From a virus (lineage: Duplodnaviria > Heunggongvirae > Uroviricota > Caudoviricetes): a DNA stretch of 64,000 nucleotides. Location of the stretch: positions 109,858 through 173,857 of IMG/VR virus record IMGVR_UViG_3300028048_001412. The stretch is one strand, 5' to 3'. Of the stretch, positions 1,278-64,000 are shown piece after piece. The translations under genes and the position numbers were made by a program. The notes beneath the pieces were generated by a model, which was not told where the DNA came from, ran no database searches, and was given only the letters and a program-made list of their open reading frames with translations. How positions within the stretch are numbered: position 1 is the stretch's first letter; every line of letters begins with the position of its first letter.

Positions 1278-2731
1278 TGAGTGAGATAAGAACAGAAAGA
1301 AATAATTCTGAATTAAAAATTCTTACTAAAATTATAAAAGATAAAGATTATAATATTCTTTCTGAAAATAATTTAACAAAGAATGATTTTAAAGATTATT
1401 TTGTTAAAGAAGGCCAGAAATTATATTTAATTTCAGATATAGTAGATTATATTGACTCTTATTATAAAACCTCTTCTCAAGTTCCAGACGAAACTACTAT
1501 TAAAACTAAATTTCCATTACTTGAATTAAATAATGATGATTATTCTAGTGAAAATAAAACATTTATAGATAATTTGAAGAAATTAAATAAAGATGATGAT
1601 TTAATAAATGCAATGACTCAAGCTAATAGAATTCATCAAACTAAAGGTGCAAGAGATGCTATTAGTTTTCTTCAAGGAGAATTGGAAAAGTTAGAAGGTA
1701 GAGGTTCTGAAGTTAAAGGATATGACTTAATTCAAAATGTAGATGACAGAATTAATGAATATGAAGAATTATTAAAAAATCCAAATAAAGCATTTGTAAC
1801 TACTGGATTAAAAGAATTAGATAATTGCATTAAAGGTTGGTTAAGAGATGAAGAATTAGTTCTTATTCAAGGTAGATCTGGTCAATCTAAAACATTCTTC
1901 TTATTAAAGTTTTTATGGGAAGCATTTGCTAGAGGAGAAAATGTTTTATTATTTGAACCAGAAATGTCTTCTAAAGTTATTGGATATAGATTAGACGTAT
2001 TAGCAGATGATAATCATGAGATATCTAATTTTTCTTTATTAAGAGGTGAAAGATTTATAGATGCTAATAAATATAAAGCTTGTTGTGCTAGATTAAAAGA
2101 ACATAAGAATCATTTCTATTATTTATGTCCTGATGATTTTGAAGATGGTTTAACTGTTTCTCAATTAAAAGCTTGGTGTAAAAAGAATAAAATTACTATA
2201 GTGGGAATAGATGGTATTGAAATTCCTGATATTATAGATGAAAGAAAAGGTTTCAAGGACGAAGAACACCTTCAGTTAACACATATAGCCGCTGATCTTC
2301 TTAGGATGTCTAAAACTTTAAAAGTTCCTGTTATTGTTACTACTCAAGCTAAAAGAACTGATAAGAAAGAAGAGTTAAGTATTAATACTATTGGCTCTTC
2401 CTACGGCATGGCGAGAAAATGCACCATCATGATTACAATTAAGAAAGAAGATAGAGAAGTAGAAATAAGAATTGAAAAGAGTAGAAATAGTACTGATAAT
2501 CAAGTTCTTAATTACAAGGTTGATCTCGATAAAGGTATATTTGAATGGGATGGAATGCCTACAATAGATGAACAAACAAATCAATCTATAAATAATAGAG
2601 AGGCTCAACCTATAACAGACGTAGATAAGGATAAGTCAGGAATAACAGAAGAGAATATAAAATTTACAGACGAGAATGGCAAACCTTACGGAGAAGATGT
2701 CTTTCTAGATGGAGGAAAAGGATTAGAATAA
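1277..2731 (+). CDS. DnaB-like replicative DNA helicase
   Basis: Walker A GRSGQSKT, and the RecA-fold C-terminal domain motif VPVIVTTQAKR (compare DnaB SQLNR). 484 aa. Confidence 0.7.
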   Translation: MSEIRTERNNSELKILTKIIKDKDYNILSENNLTKNDFKDYFVKEGQKLYLISDIVDYIDSYYKTSSQVPDETTIKTKFPLLELNNDDYSSENKTFIDNLKKLNKDDDLINAMTQANRIHQTKGARDAISFLQGELEKLEGRGSEVKGYDLIQNVDDRINEYEELLKNPNKAFVTTGLKELDNCIKGWLRDEELVLIQGRSGQSKTFFLLKFLWEAFARGENVLLFEPEMSSKVIGYRLDVLADDNHEISNFSLLRGERFIDANKYKACCARLKEHKNHFYYLCPDDFEDGLTVSQLKAWCKKNKITIVGIDGIEIPDIIDERKGFKDEEHLQLTHIAADLLRMSKTLKVPVIVTTQAKRTDKKEELSINTIGSSYGMARKCTIMITIKKEDREVEIRIEKSRNSTDNQVLNYKVDLDKGIFEWDGMPTIDEQTNQSINNREAQPITDVDKDKSGITEENIKFTDENGKPYGEDVFLDGGKGLE

Positions 2732-3804
2732 TGAAAATTACAGATAAATATATTTTAGAAGAAATGTTGGATTCTGTAAATTCTCCTAATGGAAGAAAAG
2801 CAATAGATACAATATTAAAAGGAAAACCATTACAATTATTCTATTGGAGTAGAAATGATGACGGAAAGAAAACTACTTATGAATTAATGGATGGACAACA
2901 AAGAACTCTATCTATTATGCAATTTTTAGACCATAAATTTAGTATTTTAGATGCAAATGGAAATACTCAATATGAAAATACTATATCAAAAGAAGATAAA
3001 GATAAGATTTTAGATTATGATTTATCAGTTTATATATGCGAAGGAACAGATCAAGAAAAATTAGAATGGTTTAATACAATAAATATAGCAGGATTAAAAT
3101 TAACAGATCAAGAATTAAGAAATGCAGTATATACAGGACCTTGGTTAACAGATGCGAAGTTACACTTTAGTAAACGAAATTGTGCCGGATATAAATTAAC
3201 TGAAAAATATTTTAACGGAGATCCAGCAAGACAAGAATTATTAGAGAAATTCTTAAAAGGAATAATAGAAAAAGAAGGATTAAAAACAATAGAAGATTAT
3301 ATGGCTCAACATAGAAATGATAAAGATGCAGATGAATTATGGCAATATGCAAACGATATAATCAATTGGATAAATAAAACTTTCACAAATTATAGAAAAA
3401 TAATGGATGGATTAGATTGGTGTCATTTATATAATAAATATCATCAAAATACATATAATACTCAAGATATAGAAAAAACAATAGATAAATTAATGAAAGA
3501 TGAAGATATAGAGAAAAAGAAAGGCATTTATGAATATGTATTAGATGATAAAAATCCATTCCGTGAGAAATATCTGAATTTGAGAGCCTTTCTAGATAAA
3601 GATCAACAAACAGCATATGAAAAACAAAAAGGAATATGTCCAATATGTGGAAAACATTTTAATAAAGATGAAATGGAAGCAGATCATATAATTCCTTGGA
3701 GTAAAGGAGGTTCAACAGATATAAATAACCTTCAAATGCTATGTAAATCTTGTAATAGACAAAAATCATCAGGAAATGCACCTAAAACTACTAAAAAGAA
3801 ATAA
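2731..3804 (+). CDS. DUF262 (ParB/Srx-like, DGQQR) + DUF1524/HNH nuclease fusion, GmrSD-like type IV restriction-like protein
   Basis: N-terminal DGQQRTLSI motif. C-terminal EADHIIPWSKGGSTDINNLQMLCKSCNRQKS HNH motif. Start overlaps the helicase stop (TAATG). Confidence 0.7.
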   Translation: MKITDKYILEEMLDSVNSPNGRKAIDTILKGKPLQLFYWSRNDDGKKTTYELMDGQQRTLSIMQFLDHKFSILDANGNTQYENTISKEDKDKILDYDLSVYICEGTDQEKLEWFNTINIAGLKLTDQELRNAVYTGPWLTDAKLHFSKRNCAGYKLTEKYFNGDPARQELLEKFLKGIIEKEGLKTIEDYMAQHRNDKDADELWQYANDIINWINKTFTNYRKIMDGLDWCHLYNKYHQNTYNTQDIEKTIDKLMKDEDIEKKKGIYEYVLDDKNPFREKYLNLRAFLDKDQQTAYEKQKGICPICGKHFNKDEMEADHIIPWSKGGSTDINNLQMLCKSCNRQKSSGNAPKTTKKK

Positions 3805-4897: not shown

Positions 4898-5527
4898 ATG
4901 GAAACAACTTTAACAAAAGAAATTATGAATCAAAACAAAGAGAGATTTATTTCTCTTTTACAGAAAGCCGGTGAACTAGAACCTAAAAAGAAACCAGGAA
5001 TTGATAGGTTACTTAATTGGTTAGAGGGGACCGACTTTTATTATGCTCCAGCTTCTACTAAATATCATGGCAATTATGAAGGTGGATTATGTGAGCATTC
5101 TATTAAAGTATATGATAATTTGTGTACTTTAAATACTGCTTTTAATGAAGATATGAAAGAGTATGATATAATTATATGTGCTCTTTTACATGATCTTTGT
5201 AAAATTGATTTCTATAAGAAAGTAGTTAAAGGTGCTTATAAGAAAGATGAAAATGGCGCTACTATTCAACCTAAAGTTTGGGAAGAAAAAGAAGTTTATG
5301 ATTATGGTGAGGAGAAAACTATATTAGGGCATTCTCCAAAATCAATATTTATAATTCAACATTTCTTCTTACTTTCAGATGAACAAGCAGAAGCAATATA
5401 TGCTCATATGGGTGGAATGGAATGTAGTGATCAAATGGAGAAGAATACTTATTCTAAAATATATAATAAGAATAAGTTAGCTTTCTATCTTCATTTAGCA
5501 GATTATAAACAAGCATATTATGGTTAA
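4898..5527 (+). CDS. HD-domain phosphohydrolase (YfbR-like 5'-deoxynucleotidase?)
   Basis: HD motif ICALLHDLCK with upstream His residues. 209 aa. Confidence 0.6.
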   Translation: METTLTKEIMNQNKERFISLLQKAGELEPKKKPGIDRLLNWLEGTDFYYAPASTKYHGNYEGGLCEHSIKVYDNLCTLNTAFNEDMKEYDIIICALLHDLCKIDFYKKVVKGAYKKDENGATIQPKVWEEKEVYDYGEEKTILGHSPKSIFIIQHFFLLSDEQAEAIYAHMGGMECSDQMEKNTYSKIYNKNKLAFYLHLADYKQAYYG

Positions 5528-6597: not shown

Positions 6598-7980
6598 TTG
6601 AAAATTAATGATGAATATATTATTAAAATATTTACTAGAAAAGATAATAGAATAGATAGCCATAAATGTAATGATAAATGGTTGAATGAAAATATAGAAA
6701 TCAAAAAATATTTAGAATCTCGATTTGATTATTTCAATGGAAAATATTCAGATGTAATAAATCTTATAAAAAATAAAGTTAAAGAATGGCCTAAATGCCC
6801 GATTTGTAAAGAATATTTAAATCATCCTGAAAATAAGCATTGTTCTTATGCTTGCGAACAAAAAGATCCTTTAGTTAATGATAAAAAGAAAAATACTTAT
6901 TTAAATAATTATGGTGTAGAACATCCTTTAAAATCAAAAGAAATAAAGAAAAAAATAAAACAGACTAATTTGCAAAAATATGGAGTAGAAAATCCTTCTC
7001 AAAACGAAGAAATTAAAGAGAAGAAAAGACAAACTAGTTTAAAAAATTATGGAGTTGATAATCCATTTAAATCTGAAGATATTAAAGAAAAAATAAAAGA
7101 AATAAATTTACAAAGATATGGATTTGAAAATGTCTTTCAAAATGAACAAATAAGACAAAAATATAAAAGCACATGTAAAGAAAAATACGGTGTAGAAAAT
7201 CCATCTCAATCTGAAAAAATAAAGAAAAAGAAAGAAAATACTAATTTAAAAAACATAGGATTCAAAAATCCATTACAATCAGAAGAAATAAAGAAAAAAG
7301 TAAAAAATACTAACTTACAAAAATACGGTGTAGAAAATCCATCTCAATTGGAAGAAATTAAGAAGAAAAAAGAAGATTCTTGTCTGAAACATTATGGAGT
7401 AAAGAGTCCATTACAATCGGAAGAAGTAAAAGAGAAAAGTAAAAAAACATGTCTTAAAAAATATGGAGTTGAAGTAGCAGCTAAATCAGAAATAGTAAAA
7501 GAGAAATTATCAAAAACTCTTTCAACTATGGAATCAAAAGAAAAACAATATAATACCAAAAAGAAAAATAATTCCTTTAATACTTCAAAACCCGAAGAAG
7601 AAATATATGAAAAATTATGTAAACAATTAGGAAAAAATAATATTTTAAGAAATTATAATAAAGATTCTAGATATCCGTTTATGGTGGATTTCTACATTAA
7701 ATCAAAAGATCTATTCATTGAATGTAATTTTAACTGGACACATGGTGAACATTGGTTTAATGAAAACTCTAAAAGCGATTTAAAAATTTCACAAAAATGG
7801 AACGAAAAATCTAAAGATTCAGATTTTTATAAAATAGCATTAAAAGTATGGACAGTAAAAGATGTAGAAAAACGAGATACTGCCAATAAAAACGGATTAA
7901 ATTACATAGTATTTTGGAAAGAATCTGATTATGAAAAGTGGATTAGTAAAGGATGTCCAAAGAAATTTCAAAATAAATAG
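6598..7980 (+). CDS. Putative homing endonuclease (family A): N-terminal Cys/His zinc finger, nine tandem ~25-aa YGVENPxQSEEIKKK repeats, C-terminal Vsr/DUF559-like nuclease; TTG start
   Basis: N-terminus KINDEYIIKIF shared with 17541 and 25338. CPICKEYLNHPENKHCSYAC zinc finger. Repeats from aa ~98-305. C-terminus DFYIKSKDLFIECNFNWTHGEHWF. Confidence 0.65.
   Translation: MKINDEYIIKIFTRKDNRIDSHKCNDKWLNENIEIKKYLESRFDYFNGKYSDVINLIKNKVKEWPKCPICKEYLNHPENKHCSYACEQKDPLVNDKKKNTYLNNYGVEHPLKSKEIKKKIKQTNLQKYGVENPSQNEEIKEKKRQTSLKNYGVDNPFKSEDIKEKIKEINLQRYGFENVFQNEQIRQKYKSTCKEKYGVENPSQSEKIKKKKENTNLKNIGFKNPLQSEEIKKKVKNTNLQKYGVENPSQLEEIKKKKEDSCLKHYGVKSPLQSEEVKEKSKKTCLKKYGVEVAAKSEIVKEKLSKTLSTMESKEKQYNTKKKNNSFNTSKPEEEIYEKLCKQLGKNNILRNYNKDSRYPFMVDFYIKSKDLFIECNFNWTHGEHWFNENSKSDLKISQKWNEKSKDSDFYKIALKVWTVKDVEKRDTANKNGLNYIVFWKESDYEKWISKGCPKKFQNK
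6889..7520 (+). repeat. Nine tandem ~75-nt coding repeats (TxLxKYGVENPxQSEEIKKKxKx)
   Basis: Periodic repeats are visible at both the protein and nucleotide level inside 6598..7980. Confidence 0.7.
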
Positions 7981-17540: not shown

Positions 17541-18503
17541 GTGAATATTAATGATGAATATATATTATCTTTAGATATATTTGATACTAAAGGAAGACTT
17601 AAAGCAATATCATTTGAAAAAATACTTGAGAACAATTCTGAAATTAAAGAATATCTTAAAAATAGATATAATGATAAATTTGTAGATTATAAAACCGCTT
17701 TATGGAGAATTAGAAATAATATAGATGAATGGCCTAAATGTCCAACTTGTGGAAAATTATTAGATAATTTAGAACATAAACATTGTTCTCCAAGATGTGC
17801 TTCATTAGATCCGGAAGTGCAAAAGAAAAATGAAGAAACTAATTTAAAATTATATGGTGTTAGAAATGTATTTTGTTTAGAATCAGAACATAAAAAAGCA
17901 AAGAAAGAATGGGTAAAATCAATAGTTAAGAAATATGGTTCATTAAAGAATTTCTATAAAATACGTTCAGATTTAGGAAATAAAACGATTAAAGAAAAAA
18001 TAGAAGAAGATGAACATTTTTGGGATAAAAGAAATGAAAAGAAAAAAGAAACTATAGATTCTATATTAAAGAATGATCCTGATTGGTATAAAAGATTAAA
18101 AGAGAAAGAGATTGAAACTAAAAAGAAAAATAATTCTTTAAATGCTTCGAAAGAAGAAGATAGAATATATGAAAAATTATTAAATATATTTAACAAAGAT
18201 GATATTATAAGAGAATATTCTGAAAAAAGATATCCATTTCATTGCGACTTTTATATTAAATCAAAGGATTTATTCATTGAATGTAATTTTCATTGGACTC
18301 ATGGCTTTCATTGGTTTGATAAAAATAATAAATCTGATTTGGAAATAGTACAAAAATGGAAAGATAAAAATACTAAATTCTATGATATCGCAATAGAAGT
18401 TTGGACTAAGCGTGATATACTAAAACGAGATACTGCATTAAAAAATAAATTGAATTATTTGGTATTTTGGAACACAAAAGAATTTAAAAATTACAGTTTT
18501 TAA
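17541..18503 (+). CDS. Putative homing endonuclease (family A, short form with ~2 degenerate repeats); GTG start
   Basis: N-terminus NINDEYI. CPTCGKLLDNLEHKHCSPRC zinc finger. C-terminus RYPFHCDFYIKSKDLFIECNFHWTHGFHWF. Confidence 0.6.
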   Translation: MNINDEYILSLDIFDTKGRLKAISFEKILENNSEIKEYLKNRYNDKFVDYKTALWRIRNNIDEWPKCPTCGKLLDNLEHKHCSPRCASLDPEVQKKNEETNLKLYGVRNVFCLESEHKKAKKEWVKSIVKKYGSLKNFYKIRSDLGNKTIKEKIEEDEHFWDKRNEKKKETIDSILKNDPDWYKRLKEKEIETKKKNNSLNASKEEDRIYEKLLNIFNKDDIIREYSEKRYPFHCDFYIKSKDLFIECNFHWTHGFHWFDKNNKSDLEIVQKWKDKNTKFYDIAIEVWTKRDILKRDTALKNKLNYLVFWNTKEFKNYSF

Positions 18504-20443: not shown

Positions 20444-21193
20444 ATGGTAAAAGATGGAAAAATAGCATTAGTTGAAATTTTTAAATCTATTGATGGAGAA
20501 GGTTTTCACTCAGGTCAACCTACTGTTTTCATAAGAACTTTCGGATGCAATCTCCACTGCAGTTTCTGTGATACTTCATATTCTTTAAATGAAGAAGAAT
20601 ATAAGAAAACATATAATAAAGATTTATTATGGATGACAGCTGAAGAAATAGTAAATAAGTGTAATGAATTGGAAAAAGATTTTAAATATAAATCTGTTTG
20701 TTTAACAGGTGGAGAACCTTTAATAGAAGAAAATAAAGATTTTATGTTAAATCATCTTATACCATTATTATTAGATAATAAATATGCAGTGAATATAGAA
20801 ACAAATGGTGCTGTAGATTATAAACCATATAAAGATAAATTCGGAGAACCTGTAATATTAGACCCTTATGGAAATAGATATGGAGTAAGTATTATAGCAG
20901 ATTATAAACTTCCATATTCTAAAATGAATAAATTGATGAAATGGGAAAATTTATCAATTTATAGTGAATATGATTTAATTAAAATGGTAATTAGTGATGA
21001 TCCTGAAGATTGGAAAGAGTTAGAAAAAGTATGTCAATCAGGAACCAAAGCAAAGTTGTATTTAAGTCCTTGTTTTGGAGAAGTGACAATGTCAAAAATA
21101 CCGGAATTTGTAATGAATCATCCAGAATATAATATCACGGCTCAATTGCAAATCCATAAATTCTTCTGGGACAAAGATAAGATAGGAGTGTAA
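20444..21193 (+). CDS. queE: 7-carboxy-7-deazaguanine synthase (radical SAM)
   Basis: IDGEGFHSGQPTVFIRTFGCNLHCSFCDT (CxxxCxxC and the QueE-type N-terminus). Confidence 0.8.
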   Translation: MVKDGKIALVEIFKSIDGEGFHSGQPTVFIRTFGCNLHCSFCDTSYSLNEEEYKKTYNKDLLWMTAEEIVNKCNELEKDFKYKSVCLTGGEPLIEENKDFMLNHLIPLLLDNKYAVNIETNGAVDYKPYKDKFGEPVILDPYGNRYGVSIIADYKLPYSKMNKLMKWENLSIYSEYDLIKMVISDDPEDWKELEKVCQSGTKAKLYLSPCFGEVTMSKIPEFVMNHPEYNITAQLQIHKFFWDKDKIGV

Positions 21194-21197
21194 AGAA

Positions 21198-22085
21198 ATG
21201 ATGAATATAAATCAAGAATTATTAGAATTTATTAAAGACAATTATCAGAAGAAATTCGGAAGTTTAGATACATTTGAAGAAAATTATAAATTATATTGTT
21301 CTTTACCTTCTTTTAAAGCAAGTGAAAATTTTCATGAAGTATTTGGACAATTAAATGTAATAAATTCAGAAGATCCAAATGCTTTAGATAAAGAGAGTGA
21401 ATTTGTAAATAGAGAAGAAAAATTAGGAGATAATACTAAATATACTGATTATTTAGATTGTCAAAAAGAATTAAAACCTGAAATACATTGGATAATGAGA
21501 TCTGTCGCTCAATTCTATATGATAAAAGTATTTGATGCATTAAAAATAGATCAAAAAGATCCAAATATAGCAATAAATGCTTTAGGTAAAGGAACTCCAG
21601 GCAGAATTGTTAAAATGTGGAGTGGCGCTAATCCAGAAGATACATCAGAATTATTATCAGGAAGGTGGAATAAAGAACCTGCGCTATCAGTATTTCCAAA
21701 TGATGGTTCAACTACAGGAGGAGAAATAATCACTACTCCTATTACTAAAGAAGTAGATGTAGTTGCTGTTTGTAGTCACCATTTTCTTCCATTTTCAACA
21801 TTAGAACCAAATGCAAAAGCAATAATTACATATATACCACAAAAGCATTTAATTGGAATATCTAAATTGCAAAGATTTACTAAATGGGCTAGTGCAAGAG
21901 GATGGTTACAAGAAGATTTAACAACTTATTTAGGAACAACAATTAAAAGAATAAGTGAATCTGAAGATGTAAAAGTAGAACTGATCAATTTAGTTCATGG
22001 ATGTGAAAAGTTTAGAGGTGCTTATTCTAAAAATGGTAATTTAACAACTTATTATAAATCAGGAGTGTTCAAAGATGTCAAGTAA
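21198..22085 (+). CDS. folE: GTP cyclohydrolase I with ~100-aa N-terminal extension
   Basis: GTPGRIVKMW, VCSHHFLPF (CEHH zinc motif), TYIPQKHLIGISKLQRF, HGCEKFRG. Confidence 0.85.
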   Translation: MMNINQELLEFIKDNYQKKFGSLDTFEENYKLYCSLPSFKASENFHEVFGQLNVINSEDPNALDKESEFVNREEKLGDNTKYTDYLDCQKELKPEIHWIMRSVAQFYMIKVFDALKIDQKDPNIAINALGKGTPGRIVKMWSGANPEDTSELLSGRWNKEPALSVFPNDGSTTGGEIITTPITKEVDVVAVCSHHFLPFSTLEPNAKAIITYIPQKHLIGISKLQRFTKWASARGWLQEDLTTYLGTTIKRISESEDVKVELINLVHGCEKFRGAYSKNGNLTTYYKSGVFKDVK

Positions 22086-22959
22086 AGAATATTTTTCTAA
22101 AGAGTATCAAAAAGATCTTTATGAATATATGGCTGATAGAACGTGGCTTAAAAAAGGTAAAGAAATGCATTTACCTGAAAAAAAATTAAAACGTAAGTTT
22201 GATATGATAAATTTTGAAAAATATCCTGGTGTAAATGAGGAGAGAATTTGGAATGTTAAAGAAAATACTAAAGAACAATATACTAATCCTAAATTCTTAC
22301 AAAATTATAAAGCTGCAAATAAAGAACAATTAAAATTATTAAAAAAAGCTGATAAAAAAGATATTCTATTATTATCTCTATGTGCAAATAATAAACCTTA
22401 TTCTGATAATGCTACTATAAGATGTGTAAAAAACATTGCTGATAAAAATAATATGGATTATGCTATATTATCAAAAACGGTTTGGTTTATAGAACCTTTT
22501 GATTTTTCAGTTAGACCTCCCGCATTATGTTATAATGAACCTCATGATTGGTTCTATTATAGTATAGCATTTAAGAAATATTGTGATAAAAAGAAATTAA
22601 AAGAAAAATTCGAAGAATTTAATAATAGTTGGTTTCCTGGATTTGAAATGCCTCAATATATGGTAGAAGAAATATCTAAACAATATAAAGCAATAGTGAT
22701 TTTTCATAATGGTGGGGCTAATGAATATTTAAGAAGATTTGGGAGTGAACATTATAAGCCATTTGAACCTAGTTGTCCAGTTTATAATATAGATACTTCT
22801 AAAGAAATATATATGAAAGAATTAAGGCCTATATTTCATTCAGGTGGATTATGCCATCAAAGATATTATACCAGTAAAAAAGCAACTAATGAAATAGCAA
22901 ATATTTGTAAAAATATAAGAAAAGATGTTATTCCTCAAAAAAATCTTATGAATAAGTAA
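22075..22959 (+). CDS. Hypothetical protein embedded in 7-deazaguanine cluster (overlaps folE by 11 nt)
   Basis: 294-aa ORF with no recognisable motif. Translationally coupled to folE. Confidence 0.5.
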   Translation: MSSKEYFSKEYQKDLYEYMADRTWLKKGKEMHLPEKKLKRKFDMINFEKYPGVNEERIWNVKENTKEQYTNPKFLQNYKAANKEQLKLLKKADKKDILLLSLCANNKPYSDNATIRCVKNIADKNNMDYAILSKTVWFIEPFDFSVRPPALCYNEPHDWFYYSIAFKKYCDKKKLKEKFEEFNNSWFPGFEMPQYMVEEISKQYKAIVIFHNGGANEYLRRFGSEHYKPFEPSCPVYNIDTSKEIYMKELRPIFHSGGLCHQRYYTSKKATNEIANICKNIRKDVIPQKNLMNK

Positions 22960-22978
22960 TCAGTAAAGGAGAATATAA

Positions 22979-23668
22979 ATGAAACCAGATCTAAAAATAA
23001 AGAATAGTGATTTTAAATACTTTGAGATAAATCCAGAGAAATATAGTAGAGAATATGTAATGTTATTAGCTCAGGATTATCATAAAAATCCCAATAAAGA
23101 AATTCCAAAAGCTGATTATAAGATGCTGGACAATGGAGCTGCCGAAGGAGAACAACTATCTAATAAAGATTTGATAGAAGTAATTAAATTAGTAAAGCCG
23201 GATGAAATTATATATCCTGATATAATGGGAGATAAAGATGCTACTATAAAATCATCTACTGAATTTTATAATGAATTACCTGATGATTTAAAGAATTCTT
23301 TATCTAAACTAGGTGTAATTCATGGAAAAACATTTAAAGAATTTCAAGAATGTGCTGAATATTATATGGAAAGCGGTAAAATTAAAGTAGATGTAATAGG
23401 AGTTCCTAAATATTCTGTATATTCTTTAAAGAATATGTTTGTTAGAGTTAAATTAGCAAAATGGTTGAATGAGAAATATCCAAATGTAAAAATTCATTTT
23501 TTAGGAATGAATGAACCTTTTTATATTATAAAACAAGCAATAGAAAAAGGAATGATTATAAGAAGTATAGATAGTATTGTTCCTTATCAATGGGAAAAAG
23601 AAAATTCAAGTATTCCATTTGATTATTATTTAAGAGATCCAGATATTTCTTATAATGAATTAAAGTAG
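22979..23668 (+). CDS. Hypothetical protein; weak TGT/DpdA-like (DNA-guanine transglycosylase) resemblance
   Basis: MLDNGAAEG (compare TGT DSGGFQ) and IRSIDSIVPYQW (compare TGT MFDCVLPTR). 229 aa is short for TGT. Genomic context supports the assignment. Confidence 0.3.
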   Translation: MKPDLKIKNSDFKYFEINPEKYSREYVMLLAQDYHKNPNKEIPKADYKMLDNGAAEGEQLSNKDLIEVIKLVKPDEIIYPDIMGDKDATIKSSTEFYNELPDDLKNSLSKLGVIHGKTFKEFQECAEYYMESGKIKVDVIGVPKYSVYSLKNMFVRVKLAKWLNEKYPNVKIHFLGMNEPFYIIKQAIEKGMIIRSIDSIVPYQWEKENSSIPFDYYLRDPDISYNELK

Positions 23669-23719: not shown

Positions 23720-24073
23720 ATGACAATACAAGAATATCAAAAGTATGTAAAAGAAGGTGCTAGTAAAGATTATACTAAAGAATTAGCCATAATTGGAGTT
23801 ATGGGAGAATTAGGTGAGCTTTCAGATGTAGTGAAAAAAGAGGCAATTTTTAAGGATATGTCTAAATTTATAGAAAAATATGGCATGTCAGTAGAAGACA
23901 AAATGACTTCAGAGATAGGTGACATTATGTGGCAAGTATTTAATTTAGCCAATATGTATAATATAGATATGGAAAAAATATTAGAACATAATGTAGAAAA
24001 ATTAAATAAAAGACATGGTGGAGCAGGTAAAACAGCAATTGATGGTGGAATAAGATTAAATCCAAACGAATAA
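23720..24073 (+). CDS. MazG-like nucleoside triphosphate pyrophosphohydrolase
   Basis: ELGELSDVVKKE ... EIGDIMWQVFNLANMYNID. Confidence 0.6.
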   Translation: MTIQEYQKYVKEGASKDYTKELAIIGVMGELGELSDVVKKEAIFKDMSKFIEKYGMSVEDKMTSEIGDIMWQVFNLANMYNIDMEKILEHNVEKLNKRHGGAGKTAIDGGIRLNPNE

Positions 24074-24092
24074 AAATTTAAAGGAGAAAATA

Positions 24093-24539
24093 ATGAGATT
24101 AATTTTAATTGGACCTGATTGTTGTGGGAAATCAACCTTAGCAAAAAAATTATCAAAACAGTTAAATGTTCCTATAATAAAAGGAATAAGAGGTGATTTT
24201 GATCAAATAAATAGACAAAAAGAACCATGTATATTTGATAGAATTCCTAATATAGATGAAAGAATCTATACTAATTCTAAAATAACGGATAAAGATATAG
24301 AACCTTTAAAAGATAATTGTATTGTTCTTTATATAGAAACTCCTTTATCAGTATTAAAAGAAAGATTTGAAATTAGAGGAGATGAAGAAGTTAATTTAGA
24401 TGATATCCAAAGAGTAAAAGAAAATTATGAAAAATGGCTATTTATGGAAAATAGAATAAATTTAATGATGATCACTTATGATTATACTAAAAAAGATATA
24501 GATAGAATAATTGAAGCATTTAATAAATATGGTAAATAA
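24093..24539 (+). CDS. P-loop nucleotide/nucleoside kinase (dNMP kinase or polynucleotide-kinase-like)
   Basis: N-terminal MRLILIGPDCCGKSTLAKKL Walker A. Confidence 0.5.
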   Translation: MRLILIGPDCCGKSTLAKKLSKQLNVPIIKGIRGDFDQINRQKEPCIFDRIPNIDERIYTNSKITDKDIEPLKDNCIVLYIETPLSVLKERFEIRGDEEVNLDDIQRVKENYEKWLFMENRINLMMITYDYTKKDIDRIIEAFNKYGK

Positions 24540-24552
24540 GAGGTGAAAAGAT

Positions 24553-25314
24553 ATGAAAGCAATAGTTAGTCTTTCTGGCGGTAGAGATTCTGCAACTTGT
24601 TTAGGAGTGGCTGTAGAAAAATATGGAAAAGAAAATGTATTTGCTATGGGATTTGAATATGGAAGTACTCACCCACAAGAATTAGAAGCAGCACAAAAAA
24701 TAGCTGATTATTATGGCGTTCCTTATCAAATAGTTAAAATAGATCCAAGTATATTTGAAGGTTCAGGTTGTTCTATGTTAGAATCAGAAGGATTATCTCC
24801 TGAAAAAGGAAAAACATATGAGCAATTACAAGCAGAAAATGAAGGAAAAGTAGCAACTTATGTTCCAGCAAGAAATACATTATTTTCAGCATATGTATTA
24901 GCAAAAGCAGAATCATTAGCCCAAAAATATAATGATGAAGTAACTATTATTTTAGGTCAACACGCAGATGATTCAGGATTTTATGTAGATGAAAATGGAG
25001 TAGAACATTTAGATTATACTAAATCAGCATATCCAGATACTTCAGTAGAATTTGTAGAAGCTTTTGCAAAAGTAGCTGAAATTAGTTCGGTTGGAAAAGT
25101 AAAATATTGGTCACCATTTATAAAGAATCATAAATATGAATTATTACAAATAGGTTCAAAATTAAAGAAACCTGTTCCATATAATTTATGTATATCTTGT
25201 TATAAACCAGAATTAGGTGAAGATGGTAAATATCATGAGTGCGGATTATGTGCAACCTGCTTGGACACTTTGAAAGCATTAAAGAAAGCAGGATTACCAG
25301 AAAAATTAAATTAA
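24553..25314 (+). CDS. queC: 7-cyano-7-deazaguanine (preQ0) synthase
   Basis: PP-loop SLSGGRDS. C-terminal zinc-cluster cysteines (CISC...C, CGLCATC). Confidence 0.8.
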   Translation: MKAIVSLSGGRDSATCLGVAVEKYGKENVFAMGFEYGSTHPQELEAAQKIADYYGVPYQIVKIDPSIFEGSGCSMLESEGLSPEKGKTYEQLQAENEGKVATYVPARNTLFSAYVLAKAESLAQKYNDEVTIILGQHADDSGFYVDENGVEHLDYTKSAYPDTSVEFVEAFAKVAEISSVGKVKYWSPFIKNHKYELLQIGSKLKKPVPYNLCISCYKPELGEDGKYHECGLCATCLDTLKALKKAGLPEKLN

Positions 25315-25337: not shown

Positions 25338-26462
25338 TTGAAAATTAATGATAAATACATCTTGAAAATTTTTATTGGAGAGAATCAAAGAGTTAATGGT
25401 TGGAGATGTTCTTATAATTGGATAAATGAAAATCCAGAAATCAAAGAATATCTAGAGACTAGATTTAATTATTTCAATGGAAAATACGGAGATGTAGTTA
25501 GATTAATAAGAGATGGATTTGATGAATGGCCTAAATGTAAAACATGTAATGAATTTTTAAAAGAACCATTTACTCAAGATAAACAACCTTCATATCATAT
25601 TTATTGCAGCAATAAATGTAAGAATATAAATGAAGAAAAGAAACAGAAATCTATAAATACTTGTTTGGAAAAATACGGAACTCCAGTTTCTTCTCAATCC
25701 GAAATAGTTAAAGAAAAAGAGAGAAATACTATAAATTCTAGAACTGAAGAAGAGAAAAATAAAATAACTTCTAGAGCTAGAAAAACTTATATTAAAAAAT
25801 ATGGAGTAAATTGGATTTCAAAATCAAAGGAATTTAAAGATAAATTCAAAGAGACTTGGGATAATAAATCAGAAGAAGAATTACAAGACATAAAAAATAA
25901 AAAAGAAAATACTTGCTTAGAAAAATACGGCGTGAAATATTATTTTGAAACAGAAGAATTTCAAGAAAAATCAAAACAAACTATTCTAGATAAATACGGA
26001 GTAGAGTACACGCATCAATGCAAAGAAATATTAGATAAAGTTAATGAAACTAAACATAAAAATGGAACATTTAATACATCGAGGCCTGAAGAAGAATTTT
26101 ATAAATATCTTTTAAATAATTTTTCGGAAAATGATGTAAAAAGACAATATTATAAAGATTCTAGATATCCATTCAGATGTGATTTCTATATTAAATCTTT
26201 GGATTTATTTATAGAGTTAAATCTTTCTTGGGTTCATGGTGGACATTGGTTTAATAAAAATTCAAAAGAAGATTTAAAAATATTAGATAAATGGAAAAAT
26301 AAAAATACAGATTATTATAATGCGGCTATAAATACATGGACGAAGAGAGATTTATTAAAAAAGAAAACAGCAATAAAAAATAAGATTAATTATCTTGTTT
26401 TCTGGACTGAAAAAGAAATAAATAATTTAATAAAAGGAGAAAATAAATTATGTATAGTTTAA
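25338..26462 (+). CDS. Putative homing endonuclease (family A, ~4 degenerate repeats); TTG start; inserted between queC and queD
   Basis: N-terminus KINDKYILKIF. CKTCNEFL zinc finger. C-terminus RYPFRCDFYIKSLDLFIELNLSWVHGGHWF. Confidence 0.6.
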   Translation: MKINDKYILKIFIGENQRVNGWRCSYNWINENPEIKEYLETRFNYFNGKYGDVVRLIRDGFDEWPKCKTCNEFLKEPFTQDKQPSYHIYCSNKCKNINEEKKQKSINTCLEKYGTPVSSQSEIVKEKERNTINSRTEEEKNKITSRARKTYIKKYGVNWISKSKEFKDKFKETWDNKSEEELQDIKNKKENTCLEKYGVKYYFETEEFQEKSKQTILDKYGVEYTHQCKEILDKVNETKHKNGTFNTSRPEEEFYKYLLNNFSENDVKRQYYKDSRYPFRCDFYIKSLDLFIELNLSWVHGGHWFNKNSKEDLKILDKWKNKNTDYYNAAINTWTKRDLLKKKTAIKNKINYLVFWTEKEINNLIKGENKLCIV

Positions 26463-26878
26463 GAATTAAATTCGAAATTGCCTACGCTCATAGATTAATG
26501 ACTTCCTATTCCGCCAGTTGCAGGGGACTCCACGGACATAACGGAGTGTGTGAAATATTAATAGGAAATGATAAATTAAATGAAGATATGATGGTGGTAG
26601 ATTTCAAAAAAATTAAAGAAATTGTGAAAGAAACTTTAGAAGAAAAATATGATCATTCAACTATTCTTTATAAAGATGATCCATTAGCAGAAGCAGTAAA
26701 ACCTTTCTGTAATCCAGCTAAATTTCATTTATTTGAAAAGAATCCAACAGCTGAATATATGGCTGAAAGATTTACAAATGAATTACAAGAAATATTAGAT
26801 AAAGAGTTACCGGGAACTAAAGTATTATCATTTAGTTTTGAAGAAACATCAAATAATAAAGCAATATTTGAAAGTTAA
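26450..26878 (+). CDS. queD: 6-carboxy-5,6,7,8-tetrahydropterin synthase
   Basis: FEIAYAHRL and CRGLHGHN motifs. Confidence 0.8.
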   Translation: MYSLRIKFEIAYAHRLMTSYSASCRGLHGHNGVCEILIGNDKLNEDMMVVDFKKIKEIVKETLEEKYDHSTILYKDDPLAEAVKPFCNPAKFHLFEKNPTAEYMAERFTNELQEILDKELPGTKVLSFSFEETSNNKAIFES

Positions 26879-46387: not shown

Positions 46388-46472
46388 GTTCCTATGGGAG
46401 AGTGGTTGAATCCATATGATTGGAAATCATAAGATCAGAAATGGTCCACAGGTTCGAATCCTGTTAGGAACG
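46388..46472 (+). tRNA. tRNA-Ser (anticodon GGA), class II with long variable arm
   Basis: Acceptor GTTCCTA/TAGGAAC. D-stem GGA/TCC with AGTGGTTGAA loop. Anticodon stem TATGA/TCATA with loop TTGGAAA. T-arm ACAGG-TTCGAAT-CCTGT. Confidence 0.6.
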
Positions 46473-46556
46473 TTAGCTTTATACGTAATTTGTTATAAAG
46501 TGATATTCAGATCTCTGTATTATTGAGACCAATAGAGCCGTAAATTAGGCTCTATA

Positions 46557-46628
46557 TGCGAGTATAGTATAGCGGTTATTATTTCTGGCTTCCACCCAGA
46601 GGAGAAGGGTTCAATTCCCTTTACTCGC
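46557..46628 (+). tRNA. tRNA-Gly (anticodon TCC)
   Basis: Acceptor GCGAGTA/TACTCGC. D-loop AGCGGTTA. Anticodon stem TCTGG/CCAGA with loop CTTCCAC. T-arm AAGGG-TTCAATT-CCCTT. Confidence 0.55.
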
Positions 46629-46655
46629 TTAAATAAATGAAAAGTAGGTAAACAT

Positions 46656-63463: not shown

Positions 63464-63539
63464 GGCGATATCGGCAAGCGGTTTAAGCCACAGGATTTTC
63501 ATTCCTGCATCTTCGTGGGTTCGAATCCCACTATCGTCA
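63464..63539 (+). tRNA. tRNA, probably Glu (anticodon TTC); noncanonical D-arm
   Basis: Acceptor GGCGATA/TATCGTC (one G.U). Anticodon stem CAGGA/TCCTG with loop TTTTCAT. T-arm GTGGG-TTCGAAT-CCCAC. Confidence 0.4.
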
Positions 63540-63701
63540 TTCGTAAAGAGACAGAAACTTTACGAGACTTTCATAGAAGTCCTCCTATAAAATAAATCCT
63601 AGGTCTTATTAAGTAAAATTAAGTAAGATATATTATTCAGAATATAAGAGGTTCAAATCTCTCCTAGGAATTCAAATCGTTCTATGACAATTGAATATTA
63701 A

Positions 63702-63781
63702 GCTCCATTGGTGGAATTGGTAGACACGCGAGTCTTAGGAACTCGTTCGAAAGAGTGTAAGTTCGAGTCTTACATGGAGTA
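63702..63781 (+). tRNA. tRNA-Leu (anticodon TAG), class II
   Basis: Acceptor GCTCCAT/ATGGAGT (G1.U72). D-arm GTG-GAATTGGTAGA-CAC. Anticodon stem CGAGT/ACTCG with loop CTTAGGA. Long variable arm. T-arm GTAAG-TTCGAGT-CTTAC. Confidence 0.5.
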
Positions 63782-64000
63782 CGCATATCTTTTTACCACG
63801 TTCGATTCGTTGAGAGAATGTTGAAATGATCTGTAATGGTTTACTAAAAAGATCAAGATTAGAGCTTATATTTATAACATTCGTAAATATAAGGTCGAGA
63901 ATCATTAAAAATAAGGGGCTAGGGACTGCAATGGGGTGGTCGCTTCTCTTGCAAAGAAGAAATCAGTCGGAATCATTCTCCGATAGCTCCACTATAATAA

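Follow-up and report, generated by a model that had tools for sequence, protein, structure and literature searches.

The cluster of deazaguanine genes described here raises the question of which protein inserts preQ0 into phage DNA, and of what two uncharacterised ORFs lying inside the cluster do. The cluster belongs to a jumbo phage genome of 284 kb with 25% G+C, of which a window of 64 kb was analysed. A first-pass annotation had found no obvious DpdA in it, and had suggested that either ORF might be a compact DpdA or an undescribed tailoring enzyme. Our comparisons indicate that the two proteins are most likely divergent versions of phage enzyme kinds that have already been described, not new kinds. 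The genes are co-directional, in the order QueE-FolE-ORF294-ORF229-MazG-kinase-QueC-(homing endonuclease)-QueD:

20444..21193, + strand: QueE, 7-carboxy-7-deazaguanine synthase, radical SAM (Pfam Radical_SAM, E 9e-13; PHROG QueE-like, E 1e-40)
21198..22085, + strand: FolE, GTP cyclohydrolase I (Pfam GTP_cyclohydroI, E 8e-23, residues 162-293; PHROG 2197)
22075..22959, + strand: ORF294, putative diverged DUF5591 / ArcS C1-domain (ArcS2-like) protein (profile links via relatives)
22979..23668, + strand: ORF229, predicted minimal DpdA3-like guanine/7-deazaguanine transglycosylase (profile match, conserved residues)
23720..24073, + strand: MazG-type nucleoside triphosphate pyrophosphohydrolase (Pfam MazG, E 3e-12; PHROG 229, E 6e-19)
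24093..24539, + strand: small P-loop (deoxy)nucleotide kinase-like protein, dNK/TMK-like (Pfam dNK, E 1e-8; PHROG 761 'thymidylate kinase', E 8e-15)
24553..25314, + strand: QueC, preQ0 synthase type, without Gat domain (Pfam QueC, E 3e-37)
25338..26462, + strand: DUF7487 / homing-endonuclease-like ORF (Pfam DUF7487, E 9e-21; PHROG 3339 homing endonuclease, E 3e-19)
26450..26878, + strand: QueD, 6-carboxytetrahydropterin synthase (Pfam PTPS, E 7e-25)

FolE, QueD, QueE and QueC are all encoded within 3.2 kb of ORF229. QueE matches the NCBIfam Clostridial-type family (175 bits). According to a CxxxCxxC regex scan, no other ORF of the window is a plausible radical-SAM protein, the one further match being a 66-aa ORF on the minus strand. 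FolE has an N-terminal extension of about 100 aa. QueC scores 122.6 bits against TIGR00364, under the 150.3-bit cutoff of that family, and QueD scores 71 bits against TIGR03367, under a cutoff of 89 bits. The nearest phage homologues of QueC are preQ0-forming QueCs, among them that of Streptococcus phage Dp-1. QueD carries the canonical C-x3-HGH motif ('SCRGLHGH'; motif as defined in PMC10516641), so that it is not considered a DpdL decarboxylase. Because QueC is closest to preQ0-forming phage enzymes and the QueD motif is canonical, a nitrile substrate is expected for the later steps. The module is located in a replication and nucleotide-metabolism region with helicase, primase, polymerase, topoisomerase, RecA-like and SbcCD genes.

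Both ORFs are real genes, with the coordinates and lengths (294 and 229 aa) first reported for them. Each begins with ATG. The start codon of ORF294 lies within the final codons of folE, giving an 11-nt overlap with the end of that gene (stop at 22083-22085), in agreement with the coupling noted earlier. A GGAG is found 9-13 nt upstream of the ORF294 start and an AAGGAG 7-8 nt upstream of that of ORF229. With a stop frequency of 0.102 per codon at the base composition of the window, the chance of an open frame is about 2e-11 for 229 codons and 2e-14 for 294 codons. The 6.7-kb cluster recurs base-for-base in an independent run (SRR8442993), and a variant of ORF294 differing at 4 residues (P0003) comes from another assembly. 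Searched singly, neither ORF matches Pfam, NCBIfam or PDB (noise only for the latter), so the earlier statement that no DpdA is obvious is right at the Pfam/NCBIfam level. In a PHROG scan, ORF229 matches two unannotated PHROGs only and ORF294 none.

ORF229 is most likely a minimal DpdA-superfamily transglycosylase, closest to the DpdA3 subfamily of DNA 7-deazaguanine transglycosylases from phages (Cui et al. 2023, PMC10516641). Its relatives, database-wide, are only phage proteins within preQ0 gene clusters. One of them is the annotated DpdA of Flavobacterium phage immuto (database-wide tblastn, E 6e-3), classed as a DpdA3 (PMC10516641). Pairwise BLASTP with the proteins of BSP7, Youna2, MA9V-3, TGBSV, immuto and CP220 gave E-values between 1e-14 and 1e-6, including 8e-9 and 1e-6 for the named DpdA3s of immuto and CP220, respectively. 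A word-indexed protein search retrieved one remote relative, the metagenomic P0002. When a profile of nine sequences, ORF229 included, was compared with PDB, a single significant match was obtained, with Salmonella DpdA (7ui4_A, E 8.1e-6). In the S. Montevideo enzyme, Asp95 is the general acid/base, Asp130 recognizes the base and Asp256 is the nucleophile (PMC10164549). Residues D51, D81, T89, H173, G176, S196 and D198 are invariant in the nine proteins. The HMMER alignment to 7ui4 places RSID/D198 on the nucleophile Asp256 and H115-G116 on His181-Gly182. A low-significance hhalign alignment with DpdA2 of Vibrio phage nt-1 places D51 (LDN) on the aspartate of the DSGG motif. The two patches that had been perceived as weakly TGT-like, MLDNGAAE and RSIDS, thus reflect real homology and hold the invariant D51 and D198. 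All three catalytic-site aspartates are kept in ORF229, with predicted roles as general acid/base (D51, LDNG versus DSGG), in base recognition (D81, PD) and as nucleophile (D198). H115-G116 and H173/G176 would also belong to the site. Substrate and activity are proposed from this residue conservation. The AlphaFold2 model, built from 2 sequences and usable but modest, is a (beta/alpha)8 TIM-barrel most similar to TGT/DpdA.

ORF229 has much in common with DpdA3 proteins. It is a short single-domain protein in a preQ0/CDG synthesis cluster, with a nucleotide kinase and an NTP phosphohydrolase as neighbours. The conserved residues occur in the same contexts: D51 in LDN[GS], D81 in PD, T89, H173/G176 in H-L-L-G and S196/D198 in [RY]S-x-D. 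However, identity is only 25-30%, and ORF229 is nearer to an unnamed branch, consisting of Bacillus phages BSP7/BSTP, Weizmannia phage Youna2, Chryseobacterium phage MA9V-3 and P0002, than to the named DpdA3s. With its C-terminal 30-40 residues (last helix) missing, ORF229 is shorter than any other member, and it has an alanine in place of the (stacking) phenylalanine four residues past the catalytic aspartate. The ORF229-family profile barely sees nt-1 DpdA2 (8 bits), and 4 of 9 ORF229 relatives weakly touch DUF6610 (DpdA4 family). Set against DpdA2 and DpdA4, ORF229 appears closer to the named DpdA3s. Bacterial DpdA (7ui4) and TGTs (arcTGT 1iq8, bacterial TGT 3unt) share with ORF229 the nucleophile, general-acid and base-reading aspartates, the His/Gln-Gly pair and the hydrophobic residue in H-L-L-G. 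In contrast, ORF229 is about half their size, and a DpdB partner is not evident. Because it has no Pfam match to TGT (PF01702) at E<=1 and a single cysteine, with no TGT-type zinc site, it was not classified as a TGT. Searching the 64-kb window with the DpdA3-like profile for a DpdA elsewhere, a check proposed at the first pass, returned no second DpdA/TGT-like ORF, the match being ORF229 only.

ORF294 had been described as having no recognisable fold. Its ancestry can nevertheless be traced by profile links: it is most likely a very remote member of the DUF5591 / ArcS C1 (phage ArcS2) superfamily, a homology that rests on transitive and profile-profile evidence. DUF5591 is the catalytic C1 domain of archaeosine synthase, called ArcS2 in phages. 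An exhaustive phmmer search of 1.84 billion representatives found only ORF294 itself and P0004 (E 7e-4), with which BLASTP gives E 3e-12 across the C-x3-KPY core. A word-indexed protein search gave nothing beyond the near-identical P0003. No match was found by tblastn against phage genomes with ORF294 and its relative P0006. Comparison of the family alignment with viral contigs gave pattern matches and no confirmed relative. Searched directly, ORF294 matches no family at E<=10, PF17884 (DUF5591) included; all five relatives (P0004-P0008) match PF17884, the best being P0004 with 28.8 bits for a cutoff of 26 bits. A family HMM built without ORF294 scores it at 43 bits, versus 12.7 for the best of 2000 shuffles. 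Using hhalign, the family including ORF294 aligns with 9 canonical stand-alone C1 proteins over 147 columns (probability 93.9%, E 1.6e-7). An HMM made of canonical C1 proteins only ranks ORF294 first out of 2173, at only 12.5 bits. The structure prediction advised for both proteins gave a usable model for ORF229 only; that of ORF294 was of low confidence (pLDDT 40), and a fold search with it yielded no informative match.

The putative homologous core of ORF294 spans approximately residues 64-211, with C103-x3-K107-P108-Y109. As in the ArcS2/C1 references (nt-1 VPFG_00169, archaeal and viral stand-alone C1 proteins, AF0587 of PDB 2q07), it consists of a beta strand, C-x3-[KR]PY, a helix and a beta strand ending in Ser, followed by P-x-[DEQ]-F...YP...Y-[DN]. 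At the PC-x3-KPY-x2-S-x2-H signature, ORF294 reads L-C-ANN-KPY-SD-N-AT-I. It keeps the cysteine and KPY but has L, N and I where the motif has P, S and H, three residues also gone from the nearest relatives. ORF294 has in addition a 90-aa N-terminal extension and an insertion of about 40 aa. Like ArcS2, it is found beside preQ0 genes and a DpdA-family gene, but it is linked to the canonical proteins only via intermediates. We therefore regard ORF294 as plausibly an enzyme modifying the nitrile of inserted preQ0, a reaction deduced from its family. Of the earlier either-or proposal, tailoring holds in spirit for ORF294; its assignment as a DpdA is very unlikely, ORF229 scoring only about 1-2 bits with the profile of the ORF294 family. 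The word "undescribed" does not hold either, DpdA3 and ArcS2 having been described in phages between 2019 and 2023 (PMC6884629, PMC10516641).

We propose, with a probability of about 0.6, that ORF229 inserts the base and ORF294 tailors it, as two steps of a phage module for 7-deazaguanine hypermodification of DNA. From family assignments and established pathway knowledge, FolE, QueD, QueE and QueC would convert GTP into the free base preQ0. ORF229, a stripped-down DpdA3-like TIM-barrel, would exchange guanine for preQ0 by TGT/DpdA double-displacement chemistry, with D198 as covalent nucleophile, D51 as general acid/base, and D81 and H115 reading the base. ORF294 would then add an amine onto the 7-cyano group of the already glycosylated base. 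This would give an amidine, either 2'-deoxyarchaeosine (dG+) or an adduct with an amino acid, as in preQ0-lysine, and by analogy with ArcS its formation may render the exchange irreversible. The adjacent MazG and kinase proteins would probably tune the guanine nucleotide pool.

Parts of this scheme have precedents. ArcS2 and DpdA2 of Vibrio phage nt-1 yield dG+ in E. coli (PMC10516641). A point against it is the statement of the same authors that activity of DpdA3 members has never been demonstrated, whether in vitro or in E. coli. ArcS of T. kodakarensis accepts preQ0 as nucleoside or as nucleotide, and the reverse exchange is blocked by preQ0-Lys (PMC11298593). As in the proposed route, archaeal ArcS-RaSEA (PMC11298593) adds lysine to the preQ0 nitrile after the glycosidic bond is formed, giving a product that is no longer exchangeable back. 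Unlike archaeal ArcS, ORF294 has no TGT-like N-terminal, C2 or PUA domains, and its proposed substrate is a deoxy compound (DNA or dNMP) instead of tRNA. A RaSEA-type second radical-SAM gene was not found in the 64-kb window by the CxxxCxxC scan. Hence, the window does not encode the two steps by which archaea make G+.

The kinase and MazG genes lead to another reading, which we consider unlikely. In it, the substrate of ORF229 and of DpdA3-type enzymes in general would be a free deoxyguanine nucleotide (dGMP or dGTP), not DNA. After the exchange, the monophosphate would be modified by ORF294 and phosphorylated again by the neighbouring kinase, with MazG removing the dGTP that competes with it. 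The polymerase would draw on this pool, and the genome would be fully substituted by the time it is packaged. An analogy is offered by the pre-replicative complete-replacement systems of T4 (dCTPase / dCMP hydroxymethylase / dNMP kinase) and of phage S-2L/phiVC8 (MazZ-PurZ), where an NTP pyrophosphatase and a dNMP kinase cluster with the base-modifying enzyme, as here. We know of no TGT-fold enzyme working on free nucleotides, a difference from these systems; to our knowledge, all characterised TGT/DpdA enzymes act on polynucleotides, which counts against the pool route. In its favour, seven phage lineages (this window, CP220, immuto, MA9V-3, Ahp1, BSP7 and Youna2) have a small P-loop kinase or kinase-like gene adjacent to the DpdA3-like gene or at most two genes away; for BSP7 and Youna2, the call is based on no more than a Walker A motif and a weak match to Pfam Septin. 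The kinase of the window weakly resembles kinase-like genes adjoining other DpdA3-like genes. In CP220 the DpdA3-like gene has an HD+P-loop gene upstream and a TMK gene downstream, and in Ahp1 a dNMP kinase gene plus a dCTP-deaminase/dUTPase-like gene are nearby. MazG or an HD phosphohydrolase is also encoded in this window, immuto and CP220. However, phage nucleotide-metabolism regions often contain kinases and NTP pyrophosphatases, so that the linkage may be incidental, and the homologue of a Thermocrinis virus has no adjacent kinase. For Campylobacter phages, a route via modified dGTP had been put forward before DpdA3 was known, and ArcS efficiently modifies preQ0 nucleoside 5'-monophosphate (PMC11298593). 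The 100% G replacement reported in DpdA3 phages would be hard to reach post-replicatively, yet those who defined DpdA3 favour insertion after replication (PMC10516641). The stronger version, in which free deoxyguanine nucleotides are exchanged by DpdA3-type enzymes and a pre-replicative pathway gives a genome fully substituted with an uncatalogued 7-deazaguanine derivative, is decidedly unlikely in our view. ORF294 would in that case make a new amidine-type base, which the kinase would carry towards the triphosphate while MazG eliminates dGTP.

Other readings concern what ORF294 does, or whether DNA is modified at all. ORF294 might descend from DUF5591 but have lost amidine formation, and instead hydrate the nitrile to an amide (dADG), perform other chemistry or assist ORF229 without catalysis, as a partner or specificity subunit. 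We find this doubtful. The loss of the motif Pro, Ser and His in ORF294 and its nearest relatives, the N-terminal extension and the insertion are in line with it, as is the speculation of Hutinet et al. that certain ArcS proteins of phages could have turned into amidohydrolases. STSV-2 encodes a canonical ArcS yet carries dCDG and not dG+; on the other hand, nt-1 ArcS2, which is active and yields dG+, also lacks the P and H of the motif (PMC10516641). Moreover, the cysteine, the KPY triad and a downstream S...P.D...P..CYN block are kept across the ORF294 family, suggesting a conserved active site, and ORF294 is tightly coupled to folE and dpdA, as would be expected of an enzyme in the pathway. 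That the DUF5591 similarity is spurious, ORF294 being an unrelated orphan or a compact second transglycosylase, is very unlikely. ORF294 has no direct Pfam, NCBIfam, PHROG or PDB match, and an HMM from nt-1 and PhiF1 alone does not separate it from shuffles; but the chain to DUF5591 is made of independent significant links, all in the same register, and ORF294 shows no similarity to the DpdA profile. Finally, it is hardly credible that the module leaves phage DNA unmodified and boosts or alters host tRNA queuosine precursors, an early idea for phages with preQ0 genes and no recognisable DpdA. A DpdA-family gene sits in this cluster, DpdA is regarded as a signature of DNA modification (PMC10516641), and the module lies among replication and nucleotide-metabolism genes.

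With ORF229 and ORF294 as insertion and tailoring enzymes, ORF229 would fill the missing insertion step of the cluster, and the phage DNA is predicted to carry an amidine-type 7-deazaguanine (dG+ or adduct). The pairing would be DpdA3-like with ArcS2-like, whereas nt-1, the only ArcS2-encoding phage examined, pairs ArcS2 with DpdA2. Both families are stretched here to their sequence limits, with a 229-aa DpdA and an ArcS C1 domain keeping only C-x3-KPY of its signature. This may help to define the truly essential residues and to improve pipelines that now call both proteins 'hypothetical'. The adjacency of DpdA3-like and kinase genes, in some cases with NTP (pyro)phosphohydrolases, bears on the question of whether 100% guanine replacement is achieved after replication or through the nucleotide pool.

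Three further candidates were discarded. A hit of the ORF294 family to Cas12e (PDB 8xyc) via 'C-x3-KKPY' (E 0.1) was judged to be due to chance. The 293-aa protein encoded upstream of the MA9V-3 homologue has no similarity to ORF294 and is not its counterpart, and the 471-aa protein upstream of P0005, considered as a DpdA2, shows no similarity to it and no PDB match. A point against the tailoring role is that, on the contigs of the nearest ORF294 relatives, deazaguanine genes are only partly represented, by FolE in L006 and by a radical-SAM protein in L005. In the cluster itself, the DUF7487 ORF between queC and queD is probably a mobile insertion, outside the pathway.

ORF294 and ORF229 are consecutive genes of the deazaguanine cluster for which neither Pfam nor NCBIfam gives a match. 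The first-pass annotation had proposed that either could encode a compact DpdA or an undescribed tailoring enzyme. ORF calling recovered both at exactly the positions that it gave, directly downstream of folE:

21198-22085, + strand, FolE, 295 aa
22075-22959, + strand, ORF294, 294 aa
22979-23668, + strand, ORF229, 229 aa

ORF294 starts with an ATG, shares 11 nt with the end of folE and is preceded by a GGAG of its own. ORF229 starts 19 nt after ORF294 and is preceded by AAGGAG. At the window's composition, where the frequency of stop codons is 0.10, the chance of such open frames is near 1e-11 for ORF229 and 1e-14 for ORF294. The cluster is identical base for base in an independent sequencing run, and an ORF294 variant differing at 4 residues was found in another assembly. 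The observation is confirmed.

The cluster encodes, in order, QueE, FolE, ORF294, ORF229, MazG, a small dNK/TMK-like kinase, QueC, a homing-endonuclease-like insertion and QueD, and contains the complete preQ0 pathway. QueD carries the canonical C-x3-HGH motif, which sets it apart from the DpdL decarboxylase (PMC10516641). The closest sequences to QueC come from human faecal phage fragments. FolE matches GTP cyclohydrolase I only over residues ~102-293 (PHROG) or 162-293 (Pfam); an N-terminal extension of about 100 aa lies outside the match.

A tblastn search with ORF229 against 50,697 phage records matched 12 of them, and every matching ORF examined sits in or beside a preQ0 gene cluster. The relatives belong to Bacillus phages of the BSP7/BSTP group, Chryseobacterium phage MA9V-3, a Thermocrinis virus and Flavobacterium phage immuto, where the protein is annotated DpdA. 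The immuto and Campylobacter CP220 proteins are classed as DpdA3, a subfamily tied to complete guanine replacement (PMC10516641). The immuto protein in turn connects to homologues in CP220, Youna2 and Ahp1. Invariant residues in an alignment of nine proteins are D51 (LDNG), D81 (PD), T89, H173 and G176 (H-x-L-G), and S196 and D198 (RS-x-D). When the corresponding profile was compared with the whole PDB, the sole significant match was the Salmonella DNA preQ0 insertase DpdA (7ui4, E 8e-6). In this alignment, with 7ui4 numbering corrected for a 20-residue tag offset, D198 corresponds to Asp256 and H115-G116 to His181-Gly182. In Salmonella DpdA, Asp256 is the nucleophile and His181-Gly182 is part of the base-recognition site (PMC10164549). 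Motif position and a low-significance alignment with nt-1 DpdA2 indicate that D51 is the probable counterpart of the DSGG-type general acid/base. An AF2 model from a two-sequence alignment is of moderate confidence (pLDDT 57.5, pTM 0.55) and shows alternating beta/alpha units.

These comparisons establish ORF229 as a DpdA-superfamily enzyme whose predicted catalytic residues are intact. The DpdA idea was therefore correct for this ORF, and both of the TGT-like patches noticed at first are true homologous motifs, as seen from the conserved residues and the 7ui4 alignment. ORF229 is the shortest member of the group and is missing the last 30-40 residues. Four positions past the catalytic Asp it has an Ala in place of the aromatic residue found in most relatives and in DpdA/TGT. 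Because it has a single Cys, the TGT-type zinc site is absent. A search of the window with a DpdA3-like profile found no second DpdA-like ORF. The sole metagenomic relative, P0002, lies on a 1.3-kb contig; its gene is followed by a uracil-DNA-glycosylase-family ORF (L010 1027-1338; Pfam UDG), stop and start overlapping. In BSP7 (L001 5866-8662) and Youna2 (L012 4935-7719), the DpdA3-like protein is annotated only as hypothetical, and its ORF runs into the beginning of a family-A DNA polymerase gene.

ORF294 is a near-orphan. Among 5.8 billion proteins, a word-indexed search returned its own variant only, and exhaustive phmmer against 1.84 billion representatives gave one further protein, P0004 (E 7e-4). 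By BLASTP the two align with E 3e-12, in a block that spans C-x3-KPY and P-x-D-x-S-x3-P-x2-CYN-x-PH. P0004 matches Pfam DUF5591 above the gathering cutoff. Searching with the alignment of this pair raised the number of relatives to five by adding four proteins from phage contigs; each of the five matches DUF5591. This domain corresponds to the catalytic C1 domain of archaeosine synthase (ArcS). It occurs stand-alone in phages and some archaea; for the phage form, Cui et al. introduced the name ArcS2 (PMC10516641). The phage contigs that encode the ORF294 relatives are short; FolE lies two genes away on one of them, and a radical-SAM gene is close by on another.

An HMM built without ORF294, from P0004-P0007, nt-1 ArcS2 and a Methanobacterium-virus homologue, scores ORF294 at 43 bits, against 12.7 for the best of 2000 shuffles. 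A second profile, made from nine canonical C1 proteins that stand alone (seven from archaeal loci, plus nt-1 and PhiF1), places ORF294 first among 2173 sequences, yet with just 12.5 bits. Comparison of its family with this set by hhalign gives 93.9% probability (E 1.6e-7, 147 columns, ORF294 residues ~64-211). The link falls short of significance when nt-1 and PhiF1 are the only canonical proteins used, and the assignment is therefore transitive. The signature PC-x3-KPY-x2-S-x2-H is partly kept, as L-C-ANN-KPY-SD-N-AT-I; nt-1 ArcS2, which is active, also lacks the Pro and the His. Structure prediction was of low confidence (pLDDT 40). ORF294 is thus not without ancestry, since the transitive and profile-profile links make it DUF5591-derived. 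On sequence grounds, it is a candidate tailoring enzyme of a known superfamily.

A DUF5591-derived protein is here translationally linked to the preQ0 pathway and to a DpdA-superfamily enzyme. ORF229 and ORF294 are extreme variants, hitherto unannotated, of enzyme kinds published in 2019-2023. In the literature consulted on these families we found no description of a DpdA3-like and an ArcS2-like protein paired with MazG and a kinase. ORF229 would exchange guanine for preQ0, and ORF294 would next add an amine to the preQ0 nitrile. By analogy with Thermococcus kodakarensis ArcS, ORF294 would act after formation of the glycosidic bond: the stated minimum substrate of that enzyme is the preQ0 nucleoside, the 5'-monophosphate being best, and its lysine adduct is no longer exchangeable back (PMC11298593). 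Apart from QueE, the window has no plausible radical-SAM ORF (its one other CxxxCxxC match is a 66-aa minus-strand ORF) and therefore encodes no RaSEA partner. With nt-1 ArcS2 as the precedent, dG+ is one possible end product; a stable amino-acid amidine is another. When ArcS2 of Vibrio phage nt-1 (L008 31416-32096) was added to DpdA2 in E. coli, dPreQ0 fell from 926 to 0 and dG+ reached 4 per 10^6 nt (PMC10516641 Table 3). These values leave most of the preQ0 signal unexplained, in keeping with a product that was not measured, for example an amino-acid adduct.

Modification could instead proceed before replication, in the nucleotide pool. In seven phage lineages, a small P-loop nucleotide kinase or kinase-like gene lies beside, or at most two genes from, the DpdA3-like gene:

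window 23720-24539
CP220, L011 5862-8355
immuto, L002 5231-7954
MA9V-3, L003 5468-5938
Ahp1, L013 5876-6978
BSP7, L001 5306-5869
Youna2, L012 4387-4938

This linkage is an observed adjacency, and the kinase calls for BSP7 and Youna2 rest only on a weak Pfam match plus a Walker A motif. MazG or an HD phosphohydrolase is also present in the window, immuto and CP220, and in Ahp1 a dCTP-deaminase/dUTPase-like gene comes after the kinase. The kinase linkage, the replacement of all G reported for DpdA3 phages (PMC10516641) and the acceptance of a nucleoside monophosphate by ArcS (PMC11298593) are the reasons why we keep this route as a possibility, though we consider it rather unlikely. The Thermocrinis virus homologue has no kinase neighbour, all characterised TGT-fold transglycosylases work on polynucleotides, and the authors who introduced DpdA3 argue for insertion after replication (PMC10516641). 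Their paper does not discuss the linkage ("kinase" has 0 occurrences), and we found no paper testing one route against the other. Insertion into DNA by ORF229 is the reading that we prefer.

The window has a G+C content of 25% and a strong strand bias, nearly all genes being on the + strand. The contig carrying the exact ORF229 protein is 284 kb long; the phage is therefore a jumbo phage. The window encodes helicase (DnaB-like), primase (DnaG-like), SSB and DNA polymerase proteins and, all three assigned from translations alone, topoisomerase II-like subunits, a RecA-like protein and SbcCD-like proteins. Between the helicase and primase genes lies a phage-encoded 357-aa ORF with GmrSD_N (DUF262, E 3e-11) and HNH (E 4e-18) domains. 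Judging from these matches, it has the architecture of a type IV, modification-dependent restriction endonuclease. The replication module also includes an HD-domain phosphohydrolase (Pfam HD, E 5e-7), potentially a dNTP/dGTP hydrolase. In CP220 an HD and P-loop protein is immediately upstream of DpdA3. Further features are as follows:

2731-3804, + strand, GmrSD_N/HNH ORF
4898-5527, + strand, HD-domain phosphohydrolase
6598-7980, + strand, homing-endonuclease-like paralogue, matches Pfam DUF7487
17541-18503, + strand, homing-endonuclease-like paralogue
25338-26462, + strand, homing-endonuclease-like paralogue, matches Pfam DUF7487
46388-46629 and 63464-63782, + strand, four tRNA genes (Ser-GGA, Gly-TCC, Glu-TTC, Leu-TAG)

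The second of the three paralogues was grouped with the other two by similar N- and C-terminal sequence only. The third is the insertion that separates queC from queD; at the DNA level it shares 65-72% identity with Prevotella Lak megaphage sequences.
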